Assembly: GCF_044324875.1 (NCBI RefSeq)
Contig: NZ_CP172185.1
Direction: 5' to 3' (one strand)
DNA length: 64,000 nucleotides
From: Escherichia coli
GTDB lineage: Bacteria > Pseudomonadota > Gammaproteobacteria > Enterobacterales > Enterobacteriaceae
Shown here: positions 15-59,658 of the stretch, piece after piece
How positions within the stretch are numbered: position 1 is the first letter of the stretch
Layout of the letters: every line of letters starts with the position of its first letter
Notes under the pieces: generated by a model
Databases searched by the model: none
What the model was told of the DNA's origin: nothing
What the model saw: the letters and a program-made list of their open reading frames with translations, nothing else
Translations under genes and position numbers: made by a program

Positions 15-167
15 CTACTTCTTCGGTTCGTAAGCGAGAACAGCCTTAAACTCAATATTACGTTCCTTCACCGTAAACTCACACAGCGAGTCTCCGACCA
101 GAAGCGTAAATCCCAGCACCGTCAAACACAGCACTATGACTGCCGCAAGGGCATATTTCGTCAGCAT
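15..167 (-). CDS. hokE: Type I toxin HokE (Hok/Gef family small membrane toxin), 50 aa
   Basis: Reverse-strand translation from the internal Met gives [50 protein letters not shown], the Hok family sequence; the ORF-track entry 15..203 is an N-terminal over-extension. Confidence 0.85.
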
Positions 168-267
168 GTTTATATTGCCTCCATGCGAAGAAGGGACTAC
201 CATCCAAATTGTTTGGGTTTGGAGTGGCAGCCCCAGGGTTGATAGAAATATCGTCCTGGGGCTTCAT
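79..267 (-). CDS. mokE: Possible mokE (modulator-of-killing reading frame overlapping hokE in another frame)
   Basis: 62-aa ORF that starts upstream of hokE and overlaps it out of frame, as mok does in hok/sok loci; positional inference only. Confidence 0.3.
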
Positions 268-600
268 CTTTCCAGACCTCAGAGTTAACCTGAAACCGGA
301 AAGCTTCAGGCACCCGCCGTTATCTTACCCTTCCTTAGCAAAATAGCTGTTTATTTATACAGTAAGTCCTGTTTCGGACTTCTCAATCCTCATTTGATCA
401 ACTGAAGCTGAACCCGTTTTTTTCTGCATGCCTCAATCGTCAAAATTCTTCGCCACCAGTCCGCACTGCCATAACTTGTCATATTGCAAAATGTAGCCAA
501 TTTGCTTCAGTCACCATCATCAAAAAAAGAAACATTCCAGAACTTCCGCATCTCGCCCAGTCGCTCCCACTTCTATACTGAATAGAAAACGCCAACATAA

Positions 601-24266: not shown

Positions 24267-26876
24267 TTATGAGCCAGGATGTGTGCAAACTGCCGAAATA
24301 ACAGTGACGGCTTGCTGTAAGCTTTGCTTCGGCAATACATAGTGCGCAATGCAGCGTGAGTTTGCACCGTCTCCCCACTGAACCAGTAATTCACCAGACA
24401 ATGGCGCACCGCTTAAATAAACTTGCCCGTCATCACCCACCATACTGGTTATTCCGGTACTGTTTTCCCGTACCAGTGATCCAAACGGCACCGGTTTTCC
24501 GCCCTGGGTAACGGTAATGAGCGCCCGCACGCCTATGCGGGTATCAAAATTGGCACGAACCAACGCGCCTTGCGTCGGCACAACACTGCTAATATTTTTT
24601 TCAACATCGATGGAATTCCCCATCGTATTGGTATCAAGCGCGATACGGTTATACCGATAAACCGTGGCATACGGCATCACCGCATAGCCGCGCCAGTCGG
24701 TTAAAATGCCAGTTTGATTTTCAATGCGTACACCGCCTGCGCCAGGCGCTTTAATCAAAACATTGGTATCCCCTAAAGGCTGGCTCAGCGTTATGCCATT
24801 TTCATGTCCGACCACACCGCCAGACAGCTGCCAGTTAACGTCATGTTGATCGCGGTCGTAGTTATACCCGACCCCCAGCGTACCGTAAGCGGCCTGCCAG
24901 TTTGCCGTAGCGCTGCCCGTATACCCATTATTCGAGGTATCGCCCTGGCTTACGTGATAACTCAGGTTGTGGCCTTCCAGTAAGGTCCCACCTACACCTG
25001 CCAGCCAGCTATTTTGCCCGTTGCTGTTACGGTTGGCGTTAAAGGAGGCATAAGCGCGGTCGAGCGCATTTTCCCGGGTATAGCGACGTTTGGTCAAAAC
25101 ATTGAAAGGCACTGAAACATTAAGTCCGACAATACGTTCGTTATCGGGGATCCCTACAGATTCATTCCACGAAAATGAGAGCGAATAACTGATGCCAACC
25201 CAGCTGCTGGTATACCCCACCTGATACCACGTATCTGAATCCGAAGTATTCCAGTATTTTTGATGGGTACCAGAGATATAAAGCGAGCCAAAGTCATTAA
25301 GTGATTGTGAAATATTTAACTGCAAACGGTCTTTACGGCTAAAGCGTAAATTGTGGTAATTCACGATTATCGGTTCATCGCGATGCTCACCGTCGTAATC
25401 GTAATCATACTCGTACCCCTCCATTCGACGATACGCAACATCATCAAGGGTATAAAAACCTTGTGTCGAATAGCGGTAACCCATTAACTGAAAATTGGTG
25501 CCGAAAGTGTTCATTGATTTCGCATAGAGGAAGCGAATGGAATCCCCCTCATGACGACTATCGTCGGCTAACTGACTGCGCGCATGGGTCACATCCAGAG
25601 ATACCGCCCCCCAGTTTCCGAGATTGCGCCCCAGCCCTAATAAAAAGGCGGTGTAATTGGCAGATAATTGCGTCCCGCCGTAGGCAGTAAATTCCTGTGG
25701 TAAGCCGCCGAGTGCCGTGCCCTGAAAAAAGAAAGGCGACGATTGCTGACTATTACCGCTACGAAAATCACCCGCCGTCAGGTCAAATTTGAAACGCCCT
25801 TCGCGTTGTAAAATTGGCACTGTCGAATACGGAATAGTGTAATTCTGCTGATTACCATCGCGCTCGTCGATGGTGACGTCCAGATCGCCATTTGAAGATG
25901 TCGGGTGTAAATCTGTAATTTCAAAAGCGCCGGGGGAAACATAGCTTTGATAGATAATAAAACCATTTTGCCGAATCGTTAGCTGGGCCGCCGTACGGGC
26001 AATCCCACGTACCGTTGGGGCAAACCCTTGCTGGCTATCAGGATACATATTATCGGAAGAATAAAGCCGTACACCTCGAAATCCGACGCCATCGAAAATA
26101 TCACTCCCTGTATTACCGTCTCCCATTACCAGTTCACTTTTCAGCGGAATAATGGCGCGCTGTACCCAGGTGCCAATATTATTCCACTGTTCTGAATGAT
26201 ATCCATTTCCGCGAAAATAGTTCCAGGAACCATTGTTGCGTAAACGCCACGGGCCAATATTAATCCCGCTGAGTTCACTAAAAAAATAGCTATCGTTACC
26301 ATTACCTCTGTTACCGGTGAAATTATAATTCAGGAGTAAAGCAGGAATACCTTAATCCCACTCTTCAGGCGGAATGTAACCGTGAGCGCTACTCAACAAC
26401 GCTATCTGAGGAATAGTGATGTTCAGGCGCATCGCTGCAAAATCAAAGTTAATTGTGGCATCAGGTACAGCTTTCAGTAAATCGATGCATTTATTATTTT
26501 GCTGCTGGGCTAACTCGGGGAATGCACTGCTATTAAGGCCAATTCGTTCAAGGAGTGCCTGATTAAAACAAGGCATTAACCCACCTGATTTATCACCTGT
26601 ATTTACTGTCGTCGATTCAAATACGATATCCTGTGAACCAATGAACTCATCATTACGCCAGAGATCCACCCGATACACACCCGCAGGTTGATGATTACCT
26701 CTCTCAAAGCGCGATAAATCAGCAACGGATGTGCCATTCTCTAATAAAAATGCCGGGTTGAAATAACTTTCCGCATAGCTTAAAAAGGAGGGTAAAATGG
26801 CAAGAGATGAATAACAAATTCCGGCCAGACACCAGGTATACCTCTGCGGAATATCCGTAGTAGTGGGTATTTTCAT
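24267..26876 (-). pseudogene. sfmD: Fimbrial usher SfmD interrupted by an in-frame TAA stop at 26352..26354
   Basis: A single 870-codon frame is split only by the TAA at 26352..26354; translation on both sides is usher-like (...[20 protein letters not shown]...). The ORF track shows it as 174-aa and 619-aa pieces. Confidence 0.8.
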
Positions 26877-35045: not shown

Positions 35046-35061
35046 CCTGGTGCTCATTTGA

Positions 35062-35146
35062 TTGCCGGATGCGGCGTGAACGCCTTATCCGACCTGTGGA
35101 AACAGTGATATTTCCAGGTCGGATAATCAGCATCGCATCAGGCACA
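35062..35146. repeat. REP/BIME repeat pair between convergent purK and ybcF
   Basis: GCCGGATGCGGCGTGAACGCCTTATCCGACCT plus an inverted REP-like copy about 25 bp downstream. Confidence 0.6.
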
Positions 35147-35164
35147 AATACCGAATGCCTACGA

Positions 35165-36058
35165 CTACAGCGAAATACAGGTCCCCGCTTCGCCCGCCAG
35201 CGTCTCTTCAATCCGCGATAACGCCCCAATCCACGCGGGTTTACCACGGCTTCTGACATAGCCACTCACCGCCATTACCTTCGGCCCCATCGAACCATCG
35301 GCTTTGGCAAATGGCGCTAAATCATCCGGTGTGGCACGGCGAATGGCGCGTTGCTGCGGCGTTCCCCAGTTTTCATATACCGCATCAGCATCGGTGAGGA
35401 TCACCAGCCCATCGGCGTTAATCTGCTCGGCGAGCAACGCAGCGGCGAGATCTTTATCAATCACTGCTTCACTCCCTGCTCCGTCATCCGTCACAGGCAC
35501 ACCGCCGCCGCCACTGCAAATCACCACATGCCCCTCTTTGAGCAACAACTCGATGGCTTCGCTGTCGAGAATTTTACGCGGTTGCGGAGACGCTACCACC
35601 CGGCGCAAATATTTACCATCACGTTTCATCTGCCAGCCGTAAGCCGCTTCCAGTGCCTCTTGTTCTTCTGGCTGATAAACCGGACCGATAAACTTCTCTG
35701 GCTGCAAAAACGCCGGATCATCAGGCGAAACCTCAATGCGCGTCAGCACCGTCGTGACAGGCGGCATCTGCGGCTGTGCGCTCAAGCTCTGCGCCAGCAT
35801 ATAGCCAATCATCCCCTGACTTTCCGCCACCAGCACATCCAGCGGATACGGTTCTACCTCTTTCCACGCCAGATTCTGCAATGCCAGCAGCCCCACCTGC
35901 GGTCCGTTGCCGTGAACAATCGCCAGCCGATAAGAACGGGCCAGGCGCGCCAGCGCGGGTACAGCACTGGCAATATTACGATATTGATTTTCTGCCGTCA
36001 GCGCCTCACCGCGCTGGAGTAAGGCGTTGCCCCCAAGAGCCACAACCAGTGTTTTCAT
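35165..36058 (-). CDS. ybcF: Carbamate kinase-like protein YbcF
   Basis: 297 aa carbamate kinase fold ([14 protein letters not shown]...). Confidence 0.9.
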
Positions 36059-36870
36059 GGTTTTCCTTGTAATAATTGTTGACCAAGCCAGAACCCCAGC
36101 AGCGTATCTGCCCCTGACGTATGCCCCAGCGCCAGCAGCGAATCAATTGCAACAGCGGTACGTTTCGGGCAACTCAGAGCATGGACAAAGTGCAGGAGTG
36201 GCGAGGCGAAATATCCTTGCGCGGCATAACGTAAATAACTGACGCTCACCGCTGTGGTAACGAGTTGAAGATTGTCGGAACAGGTAAAAAATGGGCGACC
36301 GGAGCGCGCATCTAAAGCGCCATAATACCAGGCCGCCAGCAGCATTCCGCTCAGCGTGTCATCATGACTCGGCGTTAATCCCGGACCTTTGCCCAGCCAG
36401 TGCCGCCAGTCGGTCTTCACGCCATTGAGCGCGGCCTGAAAACAGTGGCGAAACTGGCGTAACTCAGCAGGAAGCGGATCGCCTGCCGCCAACGCCAGTG
36501 GCCCGAAAAGCCCGGTTTCCTCCGCGCGTTGCATCCATGCCGCTGCAAGCGGTTGAGGATGCGCAGGCGGCGTAATACGCAGCAAACAATAACGCTGTGG
36601 CTGTTTAACCGTGAAACGCCCGAGGCGAATCCCTTGAGCCACAACCTGTGGTCGTTCATTGCCGCATAATCCACCGCATAACGCATCGAATTGCGCGCGG
36701 CGAAGCACCCATCCTCCGGGGCCGAAACCACTACCCTGACGATGCAGCGTTAACAGTTCGCCGCTTTCCGTCATCAGGTTAATCGCCCGTCGCCACACTC
36801 CCGCTAACCGCCAGGACTGGCAATAATTCGGTGCGCTACGGCTGGCAAGCAGAGGATGGATGAACGTCAT
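36055..36870 (-). CDS. ylbF: YlbF (DUF2877)
   Basis: 271 aa, 4-bp overlap with ybcF, GAGGAA ribosome-binding site. Confidence 0.85.
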
Positions 36871-36880
36871 TGCGCGTTCC

Positions 36881-38139
36881 TCAACCTATCCCCATGCTTG
36901 CAGCCAGTGCTTCCAGCGCCTGTTCAAAGCAGGCCAACGGTGCCCGCACAGTGCCTGCGCCAATCTGCCCGATCCCCGCCTCTTTATGGGCGATACCGGT
37001 ATTGATGAGTGGCGTAATGCCGGTTTCTACCACGCGACGAATATCCAGCCCCGGCACGCGCCCTGAAAATCCCAGCTTGGGATCTGCAACTGCATATTGC
37101 GTTCAAGGTAAATTTCCGCCATCTCTTCAGATACCGCTCTGGCCGCTTCCATGCCACCCGCACCGACAAAGCGCGTTACGCCAGGCGCTGCGATCATTGC
37201 CGCACCTCCGATACCAAAGGTTTCGGTAATCGCGCTATCGCCCATATCCGGGTTCGCCTGCTCCTGCGAGAAGCCGGTGAAAAACAGACCTTGCGGAGTG
37301 TTTACAGGCGCAGTAAACCAGCGTTCGCCCAGCCCGCTGACCCGAATCCCGAACATATTGCCGTTGCGGGTCATAGCCGTAACGATGCTGCCTGAGCGGA
37401 TCATCGCGCCAGCATCCATCGCCGCCTTGCAGTAGGCCATCGCGAGGTTGAGGAAGAACTGATCGGTCACGCTGAGGAAATCCATCACTTCCGCAATGTG
37501 CTGTTTATCATGATCGAGGCGAGCAATTTGTGGGGCCAGCGTACGCATTAACAGTGCTGAGGAAGCAATATTGCGTTGATGGAACTCATCGCCCATGGTA
37601 ATGCCCTGCGCCATCATCGCGGTGAGATCGATACCGCGCTCCATGCGCCCCAGCGCCGCGCTTAATACTGGCATTAACACATCGCGCATCCAGCGATGGC
37701 GAGTCAGGACATCTTCGCCGTAAGCGCCAAAACGCATCACTTTGCCGATACCTTCGTTGAGGTTGCAGTACGCCCGGTTGCCGTCGGTCACGTTCTCGAC
37801 CACCAGCATCGGCATACTGGCAGAAGTAATGCCGCCCATTGGCCCGACGGCATTCACATGGTGACAAGGAATGAAGTTCACTTCCCCCTGATCCAGCATT
37901 GCCAGCGCCTGCGCTTCATCTTTCGCCCAGCCTTCAAACAGACATGCGCCCACGCACGCCCCTTTCATGGGTCCGGTCATCTCCTGCCAGCGCATTGGCG
38001 GCCCGGCGTGAAGCAGTGTTTTGCCCTCGTTTAGTTCGCTGATAAGTGAAGAAGCCGGTTGCACATCCAGCCAGTGTGGACGAGCACGACGAATTTGTTC
38101 GATAACCGCAGCATTGGCTTGCGCCACTGATGTAAACAT
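36881..38139 (-). pseudogene. ylbE: ylbE (DUF1116) with a frameshift near the 3' end
   Basis: Main frame stops at 37027 after 370 aa. An alternate reverse frame is open from about 37102 to a TGA at 36881..36883 and encodes ...[70 protein letters not shown], ending 10 bp before ylbF. The combined length is about 419 aa. Confidence 0.6.
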
Positions 38140-38148
38140 GGGAACCCC

Positions 38149-39816
38149 TTATTGCAAACGTTCTAATAAACGAGCCAGTTTTTTATTGCCGCCGGCGACT
38201 GGCGACCATTGGTAATGCACAACCGGTTTGCTGGCGCTTTGTAGCTCCAGCGCAAAGCTGCGTAATCCGATGTTAATCACGGCGACGTTTTCCAGTAATG
38301 ACGGTGTGTGTTGCTGTGCGGCAGGCGAGAGCGGATGAATTAACGCTGCCGCCAGCAAGGTGGCTTCCGGTAGCGAACTCACGACAGCAATCCCCGCATC
38401 TTCCAGCGTGGCGATTTGCTGCGAGCGGCATTGCGGGTCACGTTCGGTACCTGTCACCGTGGCAATGGCGTACAGCGGTTGGCTGTCTGAACGCGCGGCA
38501 CAGGCTTTTTGCCAGGCGCTCACCAGCGAGGCGGCAGGATCGGCGGTCGCACCGAAGCCAATCACGACATCAAGCAGCAACACGCGCACTTGCGGTTTAG
38601 CGCCGAGATCGGCAATTAACAGGTTGCGTAAGGTCGGGTCGATCATCGGATGGGGACGCCCGACGGTGTAAAAATCATCGCCCAGGTCGAGGATCTGATG
38701 TCCGTCGGCGTCGAGCATCATGCCGTGATGATGGGTATCGTCGGCTTCCACGCCAAGGTGTCCGGCAAGTAATCCCGCCGCTTCAGCAGCCAGCGTACCG
38801 CCGGTATACAAACCGCAAATAAATCCGCTGCTGACAGGTGCTATTGCGTTACGTCGCGCCGTGACGCGTGAAAGCAGGCAAGCCAGGCGTGCGGCCTCAT
38901 CCAGCGAGGAGGCAAACCAGACATTTTCGTCGCGGGCCACCGCCGGGGTATAACCTAAAAACAGCGCCACCGTCGGTTTGCCGGTTGCTTTCATGGCCTT
39001 AACAATTTTCAGACGCACAGCTTCGGCAGGTGGTTTTGAAACAAATGCCAGCACTTCGCTTTTCTCGTCTGCACTGAGCATTTCCAGCGCCGTCAGCGCA
39101 CTGATGCCGCCCACTTCACGGCTGAGGTCGCGGCCGCCAAGGCCAATCGCGTGAGTAATTCCCTCCCCTGCCAGCGCAATCTGCGAGCACAGCTCCTGAA
39201 TCCCGGTACCGGAAGCGCCAATGACGCCAATGTTGCCTTCCGGCATCACGTTAGCAAAAGCCAGCGGCGTGCCGGCAATCATCGACGTACCGCAGTCCGG
39301 CCCCATCACCAGCAAGCCTTTTTCCCGCGCGCGGGTTTTAAGTTGGATTTCATCTTCCAGCGTGACGTTATCGGAGAACATCATCACGTTGAGGTTGCGA
39401 TCCAGCGCCTGATTCGCCAGCTCCGCCGCATACTCGCCAGCCACTGAAATCAGCGCCAGACTGGCGTCGGGTAATTTCTGACAGGCACTGTCCCAGCGAC
39501 GCACCTGCGTCAACGCCTGGCTGCTGCCTGAACCCTGCGCCAGTTGTTTTAGCGCCTCTTCAAGCTGTTGCATAATCGCCTGCGCGATCCCCGCATCCGC
39601 CGCTTCGCTACGAATTGCCACGCAAATATCGTTCGGCGTGGCGTTATTAAAATCGTCATGCCAGAAACCTGTCGTCTCTAATAACGCTTTATTGGCGGGC
39701 GTACCCATCATTACAGAAACATCATCAACATTTTCTGATTCGCTTAGTTTTCGTGAAATAATCATTAAACTGACCGAATCCTGAAAACACCCTTTTTTAA
39801 TAAAGGCGTGGATCAT
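38149..39816 (-). CDS. fdrA: FdrA (acyl-CoA synthetase-like, CoA-binding domain protein)
   Basis: 555 aa, recognised FdrA. Confidence 0.9.
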   Translation of the reverse strand: MIHAFIKKGCFQDSVSLMIISRKLSESENVDDVSVMMGTPANKALLETTGFWHDDFNNATPNDICVAIRSEAADAGIAQAIMQQLEEALKQLAQGSGSSQALTQVRRWDSACQKLPDASLALISVAGEYAAELANQALDRNLNVMMFSDNVTLEDEIQLKTRAREKGLLVMGPDCGTSMIAGTPLAFANVMPEGNIGVIGASGTGIQELCSQIALAGEGITHAIGLGGRDLSREVGGISALTALEMLSADEKSEVLAFVSKPPAEAVRLKIVKAMKATGKPTVALFLGYTPAVARDENVWFASSLDEAARLACLLSRVTARRNAIAPVSSGFICGLYTGGTLAAEAAGLLAGHLGVEADDTHHHGMMLDADGHQILDLGDDFYTVGRPHPMIDPTLRNLLIADLGAKPQVRVLLLDVVIGFGATADPAASLVSAWQKACAARSDSQPLYAIATVTGTERDPQCRSQQIATLEDAGIAVVSSLPEATLLAAALIHPLSPAAQQHTPSLLENVAVINIGLRSFALELQSASKPVVHYQWSPVAGGNKKLARLLERLQ

Positions 39817-43235: not shown

Positions 43236-43277
43236 GTCATACCACTCGCCTGATTATTTTTAGCTATGTTGGATTTT

Positions 43278-43304
43278 GCCACGGTTTATACCGTGGCTTT
43301 TTTT
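43278..43304 (+). terminator. Rho-independent terminator of allDCE
   Basis: GCCACGG-TTTATA-CCGTGGC followed by TTTTTTT. Confidence 0.75.
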
Positions 43305-43320
43305 GCGGTAAATTCAGGTA

Positions 43321-43364: not shown

Positions 43365-44510
43365 TCAGTTTTTAATTCCCTGACCTATTTTAATGGCGCA
43401 GGCAATATTTCGTGCGCTGTTGAAGAGATTGGTTTCACCGCTGGCGAGCACTTCGGCTAAAGGTGCCAGACGTGGCAAAATGCTGAACACCGCGTCAATG
43501 CCGTACTGGTGCACCACTTCCACGCCGTCACCCAATACGCCAGCAATCCCAATCACCGGGACATTAAACTGCTTCGCCACCGACGCCACGCCCAGCGGTG
43601 CTTTACCGCCTGCCGTTTGCGAGTCGATGCGCCCTTCCCCGGTGATCACCAGCGCTGCGCCCTGCACCGCCTGCTCCAGGTTGACCGCCCGCAGTACAAT
43701 CTCAATACCCGGTTTAATATCCGCATTGAGGAATACCGCCGCCGCAATGCCCATCCCGCCCGCCGCGCCGCCGCCCGCCATCTGGCAGACGTTGATTTCA
43801 GTTTGCTGTTGTAAAACACGGGCGTAATTTTGCAGTCCCTGCTCCAGCTCTTCGACCATTTCCGGCGTTGCCCCTTTTTGCGGGCCAAACACCGCCGCCG
43901 CGCCGCGTGCCCCTACCAGCGGATTATCAACGTCACATGCTACTTCAATATGGCAGTTCGCCAGACGCGGATCGCATTCCTCCATCTCAATGCTTGCCAC
44001 GCGCGCTAAATTGCCGCCGTTAGCCGCCAGCACCTGACCGTCGGCATCGAGAAAACGCACACCAAGCGCCTGCGCCATGCCCATACCGCCGTCGACCGTC
44101 GCACTGCCGCCTATGCCGAGAATAATATGGCGAATGCCGTTATCCAGCGCATGACGAATTAACTCCCCCGTACCAAAACTGGAGGCCAGCAACGGATTAC
44201 GCTTTTCAGGCGCGACCAGCATCAGACCACTTGCTGCCGCCATCTCAATCACCGCTGTTTTCCCGTCGCCGGTAAGGCCATAAAAAGCATTCACTTTTTC
44301 GCCCATCGGCCCGCAGACTTCAAGCGTCACGATGTTGCCGCCCGTCGCTGCGACCATCGCATCCACCGTTCCTTCGCCGCCATCCGCTATCGGCAAACAG
44401 ATATAGTGCGCATCGGGAAAGAGGGTCGAAAACCCGGCTTTAATTGCCTGACAACATTTTTCTGCACTTAAGCTCTCTTTAAACGAGTCTGGCGCAATGA
44501 CAATCTTCAT
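43365..44510 (-). CDS. glxK: Glycerate 2-kinase GlxK
   Basis: Start at Met [14 protein letters not shown]..., 381 aa. Confidence 0.93.
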
Positions 44511-56330: not shown

Positions 56331-56999
56331 CTACCAGTTGCCATAGGGATATTTTTTATCTTTGATAAACTCAAGTACATATTCATCGTCTCCAAGAGAA
56401 AAATCATGCCGGGAAATTCCTTTACACATTTCCATTTTTTCACCTGAAACCGTTTCTATCAGAATCTGCTTATCCGTCAGGCGAATATTGGGCTTGTCAG
56501 GTTTCTCCAGCCATACGCGTACTTTTCCTTCTGGAGCCAGACCGATTAACAGATACCGCAGATAATACTTTTCACTGCCACCGCCTGGTGGTGAATAAGG
56601 TGTGAGCATCAATTTCCAGACGTCTCCCGCCAGCGTTATCCAGGTTTCATACACTTTTTTATCAATCACTGAATCCCAGCAGAAATGGATAGACATAGGG
56701 GGATTTTTGGCTTTATTGAATGATAACACCCCAACCCGAAGATTATCTCTCCACTGACCAATAGTAGTGGAACTCGGAGCGGTAGCATCCAGCGTTCTGA
56801 ACTGATAATAGATACCATCAGTGTCCAATAGTTCTACATAGGTAACTTGTGCTGGTAGCGCATTAGGGTAGAAAAAAAGGAAATACCATTCATCATAGGG
56901 TGCAAGCAGTGATATTTTTTCTTTCGCTGCTGTCTGGACTGATCCGGCTATCATTAACGCAATGGTTAATCTATAAATTATTTTAGCTGTTATTTTCAT
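56331..56999 (-). CDS. Putative periplasmic immunity protein, paralog 2 (orphan immunity candidate)
   Basis: 222 aa with Sec signal peptide (MKITAKIIYRLTIALMIAGSVQTAAKEK); C-terminal half nearly identical to the upstream paralog; sits 3' of the Tle1-like effector. Confidence 0.65.
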   Translation of the reverse strand: MKITAKIIYRLTIALMIAGSVQTAAKEKISLLAPYDEWYFLFFYPNALPAQVTYVELLDTDGIYYQFRTLDATAPSSTTIGQWRDNLRVGVLSFNKAKNPPMSIHFCWDSVIDKKVYETWITLAGDVWKLMLTPYSPPGGGSEKYYLRYLLIGLAPEGKVRVWLEKPDKPNIRLTDKQILIETVSGEKMEMCKGISRHDFSLGDDEYVLEFIKDKKYPYGNW

Positions 57000-57005
57000 T
57001 GTTAC

Positions 57006-57665
57006 TTACCAGTTACCATAGGGATATTTTTTATCTTTGATAAACTCAAGAACATATTCATCGTCTCCAAGAGAAAAATCATGCCGGGAAATTCCTTTAC
57101 ACATTTCCATTTTTTCACCTGAAACCGTTTCTATCAGAATCTGCTTATCCGTCAGGCGAATATTGGGTTTGTCACGTTTATTAAGCCATACCCGTACTTT
57201 TCCTTCCGGAGCCAGCCCGATTAACAGAAACCGCAGATAATACTTTTCACTGCCACCGCATGGTGGTGAATAAGGTGTGAGCATCAATTTCCAGACGTCT
57301 CCCGCCAGTGTTATCCAGGTTTCATACACTTTTTTATCAATCACTGAATCCCAGCAAAAATGGATAGACATTGGTGGGTTTTTGGCTTTATTAAAAACTG
57401 ACGACATCCCTGATACTTTCTCGCTCCATTGTCCAACACTTCCTGGACTGGCATTGGTACTGGCCAGCGTTCTGAACTGATAATAGATGCCATCGGTATC
57501 TAATAATTCCACATAGGTAACTTGTGCTGGTAGGGAATCAGGGTAGAAAAAATTGAAATACCACTCATCATAGGGTGCAAGCAACAATATTTTTTCTTTC
57601 GCTGCTGCGTTAAAGTTAAGAACCATAGACGTAATAACAAACAGTAATTTTATATTAAATTCCAT
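57006..57665 (-). CDS. Putative periplasmic immunity protein, paralog 1 (likely cognate to the adjacent Tle1-like effector)
   Basis: Start at internal ATG 57665 (MEFNIKLLFVITSMVLNFNAAAKEK, signal peptide); this start overlaps the effector stop as ATGGAATTTAA; about 219 aa. Confidence 0.7.
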   Translation of the reverse strand: MEFNIKLLFVITSMVLNFNAAAKEKILLLAPYDEWYFNFFYPDSLPAQVTYVELLDTDGIYYQFRTLASTNASPGSVGQWSEKVSGMSSVFNKAKNPPMSIHFCWDSVIDKKVYETWITLAGDVWKLMLTPYSPPCGGSEKYYLRFLLIGLAPEGKVRVWLNKRDKPNIRLTDKQILIETVSGEKMEMCKGISRHDFSLGDDEYVLEFIKDKKYPYGNW

Positions 57666-59658
57666 TTTGTTTATTCCCTTGCATATCGTATATAGTTCTG
57701 GTCCAATTTTCATCCGGCCGATTAACAAAACTAAACGTCTTAAACGCTGATACTTCAGCAGACACCTTATTTTTTAATCGATAATCGACGGTATTCCAGT
57801 TGGAAGAACAGTGTAAATATTTCCCAATGGTTTTAAGCTCATCATCAGAAAAAGGCATCGGCGCTGTACACAAGAGAACGGCTTTACCCTGAGAAATTGC
57901 TTTTTCACATATTACCTTTAAATGACTGGGAACTTTTAATTCCTTATCAGCAACAGAAATGGCATCAAATACTACCCCTGCCTCTTTAGCGACTTCATAC
58001 ATTACTCTTAACGCAATCTTTGACCAGTCATTGGTGATCGTTCTGCGAAATGTCACCGCTGCAGCGACCCGTTTTCTCACATTACCTAAGTGGTCAGGCG
58101 ACGCTATTTCATCAATATTGGATTCAATTTTTAGGACACCAGAAGGCAGAATCGGAGCCAGCGTCGAATAGCGCCACAATAACTCTGCCTGCTGTACTGC
58201 TTTTTGGTAAGCGCTTGTCGCTTCCATCGGCACATTTCCCAGTACCGTTTCAATCGCCGGGCGACTTAAAAACAGGTACTCATCTTCCTGTGGGTCATAA
58301 CCGCCACCAATATCAGCATGTGATCCAGGGAAACTTAATTCTGGCCAGCTTTCCTTTATGCTGTTGAGGCAAAAGTTATAGCGACATTCGTTCATTGCTG
58401 TGAGCTGGAATACATGTTTGGCCACACCTGGCGGTAACTTCACTTTTACCGGAAAGTTATTACCATCATGAGGGTCAAAACCATCCATCAGCCCTCCGAT
58501 GGCTGCAACTGTGTCAAAAATACCTAAAAATTGCACTTCCCCGGAAGGTTTACCTAAATATTCAACTGACTGAAATGCCGTCGCAATGGTTTTAATCAGT
58601 ACGGGATCACGTTCAAATACGCGATTAGTAAAGTGCCGTGCGGCTGCCGCCCCACGACTAAAGCCAAATACGTCAAACTGTAGACGCTTAATTACTAGTT
58701 TAGCATCCTTTAAATCAACAATAATCTCTGCCAGTGTCTCACGAAGCAGTGATATCGCACGGTCAGTTTTGGCAATTACCCCAGTATCATTATTTCCTAG
58801 CCCCATTCCTACCAGAGAGTCTGCTTTATTATTTTCAGTGCCAATACCTTCAATATATATTTTTTCCTGAATATTAAATACATCATCATCTAAAACTAAT
58901 TGCCGATGATACAACTCATTCAACCAATGAATATTCGTATAGTAATTCAAATAGCTCTGTACTCCGGATCCCGTTTTACCCTGCTTGCTCATACATTGTT
59001 TATTAAACGAGGCCAAATCCTGGACATCCAGACCATAGGTTTCTGGTTGGCAAAAACTCATACGTAAATTCGTATTGGTTAAATTGTTTCCTGTGCCATC
59101 AAAGAATACGCCAATGGTGAGGATAATTTCTCGTTCAGGCGGTATTTCTGGTTTTTCCTCAACAGGTAAGAGCGTCGGTGGGAAAAGGCGATTATAATTT
59201 TCAGGTGTGAGTAAATAACTAAATTCTGTATTGGCTGTAAGATGCTTACAGTAGATATATTTGTAGTGTATTGTTATATATTGATAGTCGAGTTCATTTT
59301 CTTTTATTATAATCTGATTCTGAGTTAACGTTGCACCGCGGACTTCAATATAATAATAACTTTCCCATTTCCCATATTTATTAATACGATAAAAATCAAA
59401 CTCAAAACGGCATCGTTCGTTATTATTAATGCAATTCATCAGCAGCGGTGAGCTTTTATCGAGAATTTTACAAAATTGTATCGCTTGATGATTAATGCCA
59501 AATCCTGTATTACTCACTCCTCCCTGAAAACTAAAAACAAATATTTCATCTTCATGTCCCTGTTGATACCGATTCCCGACAGAGGCTTGCGTCCCGCATC
59601 CTGCAGAAATATTACCTTGTTGCTCCCCTGTAATGCGTAAATATATAATGTCACCCAT
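57655..59658 (-). CDS. Hcp-domain / DUF2235 (Tle1-like phospholipase) fusion protein, a putative T6SS Hcp-linked effector, 667 aa
   Basis: N-terminal ~155 aa match the Hcp/TssD family (IYLRITGEQQGNISAGCGTQASVGNRYQQGHEDEIFV..., KSSPLL motif). A Pro-rich linker (PPTLLPVEEKPEIPPERE) follows, then DUF2235 hallmarks: FFDGTGNN, nucleophile elbow GFSRGA, FDTVAA and HADIGGGY. Confidence 0.85.
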   Translation of the reverse strand: MGDIIYLRITGEQQGNISAGCGTQASVGNRYQQGHEDEIFVFSFQGGVSNTGFGINHQAIQFCKILDKSSPLLMNCINNNERCRFEFDFYRINKYGKWESYYYIEVRGATLTQNQIIIKENELDYQYITIHYKYIYCKHLTANTEFSYLLTPENYNRLFPPTLLPVEEKPEIPPEREIILTIGVFFDGTGNNLTNTNLRMSFCQPETYGLDVQDLASFNKQCMSKQGKTGSGVQSYLNYYTNIHWLNELYHRQLVLDDDVFNIQEKIYIEGIGTENNKADSLVGMGLGNNDTGVIAKTDRAISLLRETLAEIIVDLKDAKLVIKRLQFDVFGFSRGAAAARHFTNRVFERDPVLIKTIATAFQSVEYLGKPSGEVQFLGIFDTVAAIGGLMDGFDPHDGNNFPVKVKLPPGVAKHVFQLTAMNECRYNFCLNSIKESWPELSFPGSHADIGGGYDPQEDEYLFLSRPAIETVLGNVPMEATSAYQKAVQQAELLWRYSTLAPILPSGVLKIESNIDEIASPDHLGNVRKRVAAAVTFRRTITNDWSKIALRVMYEVAKEAGVVFDAISVADKELKVPSHLKVICEKAISQGKAVLLCTAPMPFSDDELKTIGKYLHCSSNWNTVDYRLKNKVSAEVSAFKTFSFVNRPDENWTRTIYDMQGNKQNGI

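Follow-up and report, generated by a model that had tools for sequence, protein, structure and literature searches.

The ylbE locus and its operon

The window analysed here is a stretch of 64,000 nucleotides of Escherichia coli DNA (contig NZ_CP172185.1 of assembly GCF_044324875.1), and all positions given below are counted from its first letter. It carries the operon fdrA–ylbE–ylbF–ybcF next to allECD, with the gene order and the full-length orthologs confirmed against MG1655, and within this operon ylbE is divided between two reading frames. The genes, frames and sites concerned are the following.

38149..39816, minus strand: fdrA (allF), first gene of the operon, intact, 555 aa
38139..37027, minus strand: truncated ylbE (allG) open reading frame, 370 aa, with a TAG stop at 37029..37027
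36881..37102, minus strand: alternate frame with the orphaned C-terminus of YlbE, open from 37102 to 36884, with a TGA stop at 36883..36881
37057..36881, minus strand: GTG-started open reading frame of 58 aa, labelled by the submitters “C-ter fragment, truncated protein”
37053 (C) / 37052 (G), minus strand: site of a 1-nt deletion, placed by DNA alignment with intact alleles
36055..36870, minus strand: ylbF (allH), intact, 271 aa
35165..36058, minus strand: ybcF (allK, carbamate kinase), last gene of the operon, intact, 297 aa

The truncated product consists of 362 native residues, followed by eight out-of-frame residues (RGWIFVAW) and the stop. The 3′ part of the gene was aligned with two references, the intact allele of E. 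coli N3 and that of MG1655 (NC_000913.3, with an intact coding sequence of 419 aa), and exactly one gap was found. Where the intact alleles read GCGTGCC[T]GGGGCTGG, the bracketed T is absent from the window; in this part of the gene the intact alleles have GCGTGCCTGGGGCTGG and the window allele has GCGTGCCGGGGCTGG. In the intact gene of 1260 nt the missing T occupies nt 1088 and belongs to codon 363 (CTG, Leu). It is a lone base outside any homopolymer, with a run of four G directly after it, and it sits inside the zone in which the two frames overlap. When the T was put back in silico, a YlbE of 419 aa was obtained that differs from the MG1655 protein by five amino acid substitutions. The homologous part of the alternate frame begins past the deletion, at 37052, and its stop codon (36883..36881) lies 10 nt upstream of the ylbF ATG (36870).

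A preliminary description of this DNA had ended the ylbE frame at 37027 and had noticed a second reverse frame open across 37102..36884, and both were recovered at the same coordinates. It had also anticipated a repaired protein of about 419 aa within this operon, which is the length that re-insertion of the T gives. Its proposal of a single-nucleotide frameshift holds as well, but the interval in which it put the indel (37080..37105) does not, the real site at 37053/37052 being some 30–50 nt further 3′.

The damage is confined to ylbE among the genes that were checked. Between ybbP and cysS, 23 other genes were compared with MG1655, and all of them align over their full length without gaps or internal stops. 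They include the 16 other genes of the allantoin cluster (allS, allA, allR, gcl, hyi, glxR, allW, allB, ybbY, glxK, allE, allC, allD, fdrA, ylbF and ybcF), which fits a recent, isolated hit and not the decay of a whole regulon.

Surroundings of the operon

Several further observations were made along the window. Between purK and ybcF there is a REP-like palindromic element (GCCGGATGCGGCGTGAACGCCTTATCCG...) at 35046-35165, and the short-read contigs of the lineage end there. Three RNA genes were placed outside the operon.

159-315, minus strand: sok antitoxin RNA, adjoining hokE (Rfam)
21767-21843, minus strand: tRNA-Arg(TCT), between envY and fimZ
43242-43308, minus strand: sRNA STnc480, between allE and glxK (Rfam)

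At the tRNA-Arg(TCT) site between envY and fimZ, K-12 has a DLP12-type prophage, whereas the window has none. From selU to ybbP (56331-59658) the window codes for an Hcp-family T6SS effector of 667 aa and contains two DUF2931 genes, where K-12 has rhsD–ybbC and pseudogenes instead; selU itself is 368 aa long in the window and 364 aa in K-12. The gap between cusS and nfrB (14521-14543) is without an island of about 10 kb that is carried by the nearest complete relatives and that, in one relative (14522-24590), includes a T6SS VgrG, a DcrB-related protein, a zincin-like metallopeptidase toxin and an ISEc1 transposase. The first part of the window (1-25000) reaches up to 99.4% identity to complete RefSeq E. 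coli genomes. From 25000 to 64000, a part that covers the sfm genes, the allantoin cluster and the genes up to ybbP, identity to the best of 5,426 such genomes is 97–98.5%, and this divergence reflects either a lineage that has no relative among the complete genomes or a segment imported from a divergent E. coli.

The segment lost from YlbE

The 73-aa peptide of the alternate frame was searched alone, and it matched residues 356–420 of a 424-aa homolog (57% identity, E=2e-18) that is itself about 50% identical to YlbE, so the open alternate frame is not due to chance. The repaired YlbE aligns with PDB entry 3CLQ (421 aa) over residues 2–416 (E=5e-112, 46% identity), and the block ETG..P.INT.IAHKE.GIG.IGAG, which is strongly conserved in this alignment, falls wholly in the part that is now encoded in the alternate frame. 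The Pfam model PF06545 (AllG, formerly DUF1116) was matched over its full profile (1–215) with 327 bits against a cutoff of 27 by the truncated and the repaired protein alike. This match spans only YlbE residues 87–302, all of which are kept in the 370-aa product, and it therefore gives no verdict on the C-terminus, for which 3CLQ and a family-wide search were used instead. The NCBIfam models returned no match for YlbE, truncated or repaired.

The family-wide search recovered 3,123 relatives of YlbE. Among the best 150 cluster representatives, 109 reach at least query residue 405; the 41 that end early are scattered (64–401) and include no class ending near residues 362–370. Intact orthologs that stop at residue 370 and have no homology to the alternate-frame peptide, which the preliminary description had named as what would refute it, were not found among them, and the frameshift reading stands. 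In an alignment of 57 sequences, whose 56 diverse homologs had been chosen for full length, mean identity to the query is 50.6% over residues 363–412 and 36.6% over residues 1–362, with an occupancy of 99.6% in the former; because of that choice, the unselected count of 109 in 150 is the fairer test. By comparison of sequences, then, the lost segment is the best-conserved part of the YlbE family. Members of the AllG/YlbE family have a full-length architecture of about 410–430 aa in one frame, including the C-terminal block. In the window the frame is broken at codon 363 instead, with the C-terminal segment encoded in another frame, which makes the locus a pseudogene member of the family.

The repaired protein was modelled with AlphaFold2 (mean pLDDT 97.4), and the model superimposes on 3CLQ with a TM score of 0.96 and an rmsd of 1.0 Å. 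In the model the lesion lies inside a beta-strand formed by residues 359–366, and the truncation would remove the end of this strand, a helix (367–373), two further strands (378–385 and 392–399) and the terminal helix (402–415). The frameshift thus swaps the last 57 residues of YlbE for 8 unrelated ones and, with a segment gone that is both conserved and structured, an inactive or unstable subunit is the most likely outcome, the chief reservation being that the Pfam AllG domain stays whole.

Inheritance of the deletion

The exact 370-aa product has been deposited as SRB09175.1; it was found in public data on 133 contigs, and 136 blocks of the index list it. The leftover open reading frame of 58 aa, deposited as SRB09188.1, is present on 135 contigs. 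Contigs of GCA_900482385.1 and of four independent sequencing runs all have the deletion, and over 9–13 kb they show 1–3 SNPs relative to the window. The contigs that bear it are SNP-distinct from each other and hence come from separate isolates of one clone. One of the isolates that lack the ylbE T, SRR31121924, has in addition lost 15 nt in frame from glxK (376 instead of 381 aa). This second deletion, which corresponds to window 43756-43770 and lies at position 385 of the isolate's contig, falls in a GC-rich repeat of the GGCGG type.

The exact repaired protein of 419 aa also exists. It is encoded by GCA_024755885.1, which differs from the window by 3 SNPs over 12.9 kb plus exactly the ylbE T, and by ERR5752170, which differs by 2 SNPs over 8.6 kb plus exactly the same T. 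Since a near-identical haplotype survives with the T present, the deletion is a recent event. Taken together, ylbE (allG) in the window is read as a recent pseudogene that arose by a single-base deletion in one clonal E. coli lineage and whose product is most likely misfolded or inactive, a reading to which we assign a probability of about 0.93. It is an ordinary lineage-specific pseudogene, already flagged as truncated in public annotation.

Why the allele spread, and whether it is a pseudogene at all

It may be asked whether the deletion was selected, i.e., whether shutting the oxamate branch redirected ureidoglycolate to glyoxylate and glycerate and so helped the clone to expand. The deletion was found in about 136 sample blocks compared with 2 intact ones on the near-identical haplotype, and further truncated ylbE fragments occur in public data. 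A clade of S. sonnei has been reported with five nonsynonymous and no synonymous SNPs in ylbE (PMC6811581), and another report describes an fdrA variant that altered allantoin flux and that arose under laboratory selection (PMC8550087). The ratio of about 136 to 2, however, reflects the sampling of a clone and not its fitness, and hitch-hiking or drift during a clonal expansion explains these counts equally well, so that adaptive loss is regarded as unlikely. It addresses the spread of the allele, not its nature, and is compatible with the explanation as a recent pseudogene. With the lesions of a K-12 stock (see below), the nonsynonymous excess in S. sonnei and the other fragments, ylbE seems to have been hit repeatedly; if adaptive loss were true, the deletion in the window would be one case among several in which Escherichia and Shigella lineages have repeatedly inactivated ylbE in parallel. 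One of the other C-terminal fragments, BEC38187.1, has 174 aa and is encoded on a complete chromosome of 4.99 Mb.

With a programmed −1 ribosomal frameshift, or if the split gene were functional, the cell would keep a working enzyme, YlbE being made at full length or in two pieces. A −1 shift within nt 1038–1113 of the gene, where the frames overlap, would indeed restore the frame, and the GTG-started open reading frame of 58 aa covers the orphaned C-terminus. That overlap zone contains no slippery heptamer of the form X XXY YYZ, however, and the two-frame arrangement is not conserved among relatives, which have one uninterrupted frame, near-identical sister isolates included; a programmed shift was rejected as very unlikely on these two grounds. 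The 58-aa product is no better placed. The break would fall within a predicted beta-strand, the GTG is preceded just by a poorly spaced AGGG and not by a well-spaced ribosome-binding site, and the interval holds no promoter-like site. Even weak complementation in two pieces is for these reasons unlikely, and the whole proposal of a functional YlbE is very improbable.

No assembly error is commoner than a single-base indel, and the site lies next to a run of four G, which might suggest that ylbE is intact in the organism and that the missing T is an artefact. The deleted T is nevertheless a lone base and not part of a homopolymer. The same truncated product comes from about 136 sample blocks that represent unrelated ERR and SRR runs as well as one GenBank assembly, on contigs that are SNP-distinct, and the sister isolates that have the T were resolved as such. 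Sequencing error was ruled out by this recurrence and is hardly credible.

The question of K-12 arose since the preliminary description had taken ylbE to be a known frameshifted pseudogene of MG1655 and had suggested a tie of the window to that lineage. The former is correct for the original reference (U00096.2 / NC_000913.2), in which ylbE was annotated as a pseudogene (PMC5460176, PMC4759930, PMC3045373); in the current record, NC_000913.3, the gene is intact (419 aa). The published differences in K-12 are a SNP (547,694 in the old numbering) and an additional G (547,831), both inside the 252-nt first fragment of the gene (PMC5460176), and conversion of the coordinates places the added G in the G-run at nt 252–256 of ylbE. 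The window is intact over this part of the gene: it has five G at nt 252–256, which is the intact state, and its frame is open through codon 362, its own break lying at nt 1088. Nor is the surrounding chromosome close to K-12: ylbE differs from that of MG1655 at 26 of 1260 nt (97.9% identity) and 28 neighbouring genes have 95.7–99.3% identity, while among the complete RefSeq E. coli genomes, those of K-12 included, the highest identity is 98.7% over ylbE and 98.2% over the 30–45 kb part of the window. Although the old MG1655 reference did have a frameshifted ylbE, direct alignment and the published lesion coordinates rule out that the window carries the K-12 allele, a reading with next to no chance of being right, and the link to the K-12 lineage was abandoned. 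A ylbE frameshift alone is no sign of K-12, as independent lesions have arisen at different places in the gene.

Predicted consequences for allantoin catabolism

[quoted passage not shown] The activity of AllG with AllF and AllH was established by experiments on the K-12 proteins (PMC11326118). A delta-allG strain produced no oxamate, built up oxalate and consumed 14.0 mM allantoin compared with 19.5 mM (PMC11326118), and allG alone failed to complement the deletion (0 mM oxamate; PMC11326118, Table 1). The latter hints at polarity, or at a stoichiometry requirement among the three genes allFGH, a point that is relevant to any effect of an early allG stop on allH.

In the clone, loss of the T at nt 1088 replaces the C-terminus of AllG through the frameshift and most likely yields a misfolded or inactive subunit. 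By analogy with delta-allG, oxalurate would then not be converted to oxamate and carbamoyl phosphate, the nitrogen of allantoin would be recovered anaerobically only through the intact branch of ureidoglycolate lyase and glyoxylate, and carbamate kinase would no longer contribute ATP. Loss of the AllFGH oxamate carbamoyltransferase is thus predicted for the clone.

An effect on the downstream genes is a separate matter. The Shine-Dalgarno sequence of ylbF (GAGGA, with 7-nt spacing) overlaps the original ylbE stop codon, and in the broken allele the ribosomes stop 156 nt ahead of the ylbF start codon instead of the 10 nt of the intact allele. When the operon was scanned for promoters and terminators, nothing was found between the premature stop and ylbF. 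Because ylbF has a good Shine-Dalgarno sequence of its own, downstream expression may be little affected, and with the interval lacking promoter-like and terminator-like sites a polar effect on ylbF, and more generally a lower expression of ylbF and ybcF caused by the premature ylbE stop, is speculative.

The annotation of the clone should accordingly read ylbE/allG pseudogene, with the prediction that no oxamate can be formed from allantoin under anaerobic conditions. Absence of the T cleanly marks the clone off from its closest intact relatives; beyond annotation and strain typing the lesion has little significance.

Comparison with known systems

The closest known counterpart of the repaired protein is AllG/YlbE of E. 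coli (b4572, P77129), the subunit of the OXTCase AllFGH, which is the same gene in the same place of the operon, downstream of allECD. The repaired protein has the same length of 419 aa, 5 substitutions and the PF06545 domain, whereas the allele in the window is cut to 370 aa. The structure 3CLQ, a conserved protein of unknown function from Enterococcus faecalis V583, is a full-length homolog that has the C-terminal segment absent from the window allele; it differs in coming from another organism, in being intact and in that its PDB entry is without an assigned function. The ylbE pseudogene of the old MG1655 reference resembles the one described here in that a shift of one base broke the same gene in one lineage or stock. 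In MG1655 the lesions are found near nt 114 and within the G-run (nt 252–256), in contrast to the lesion at nt 1088 in the window, which is carried on a haplotype about 2% divergent from K-12; the two are independent events.
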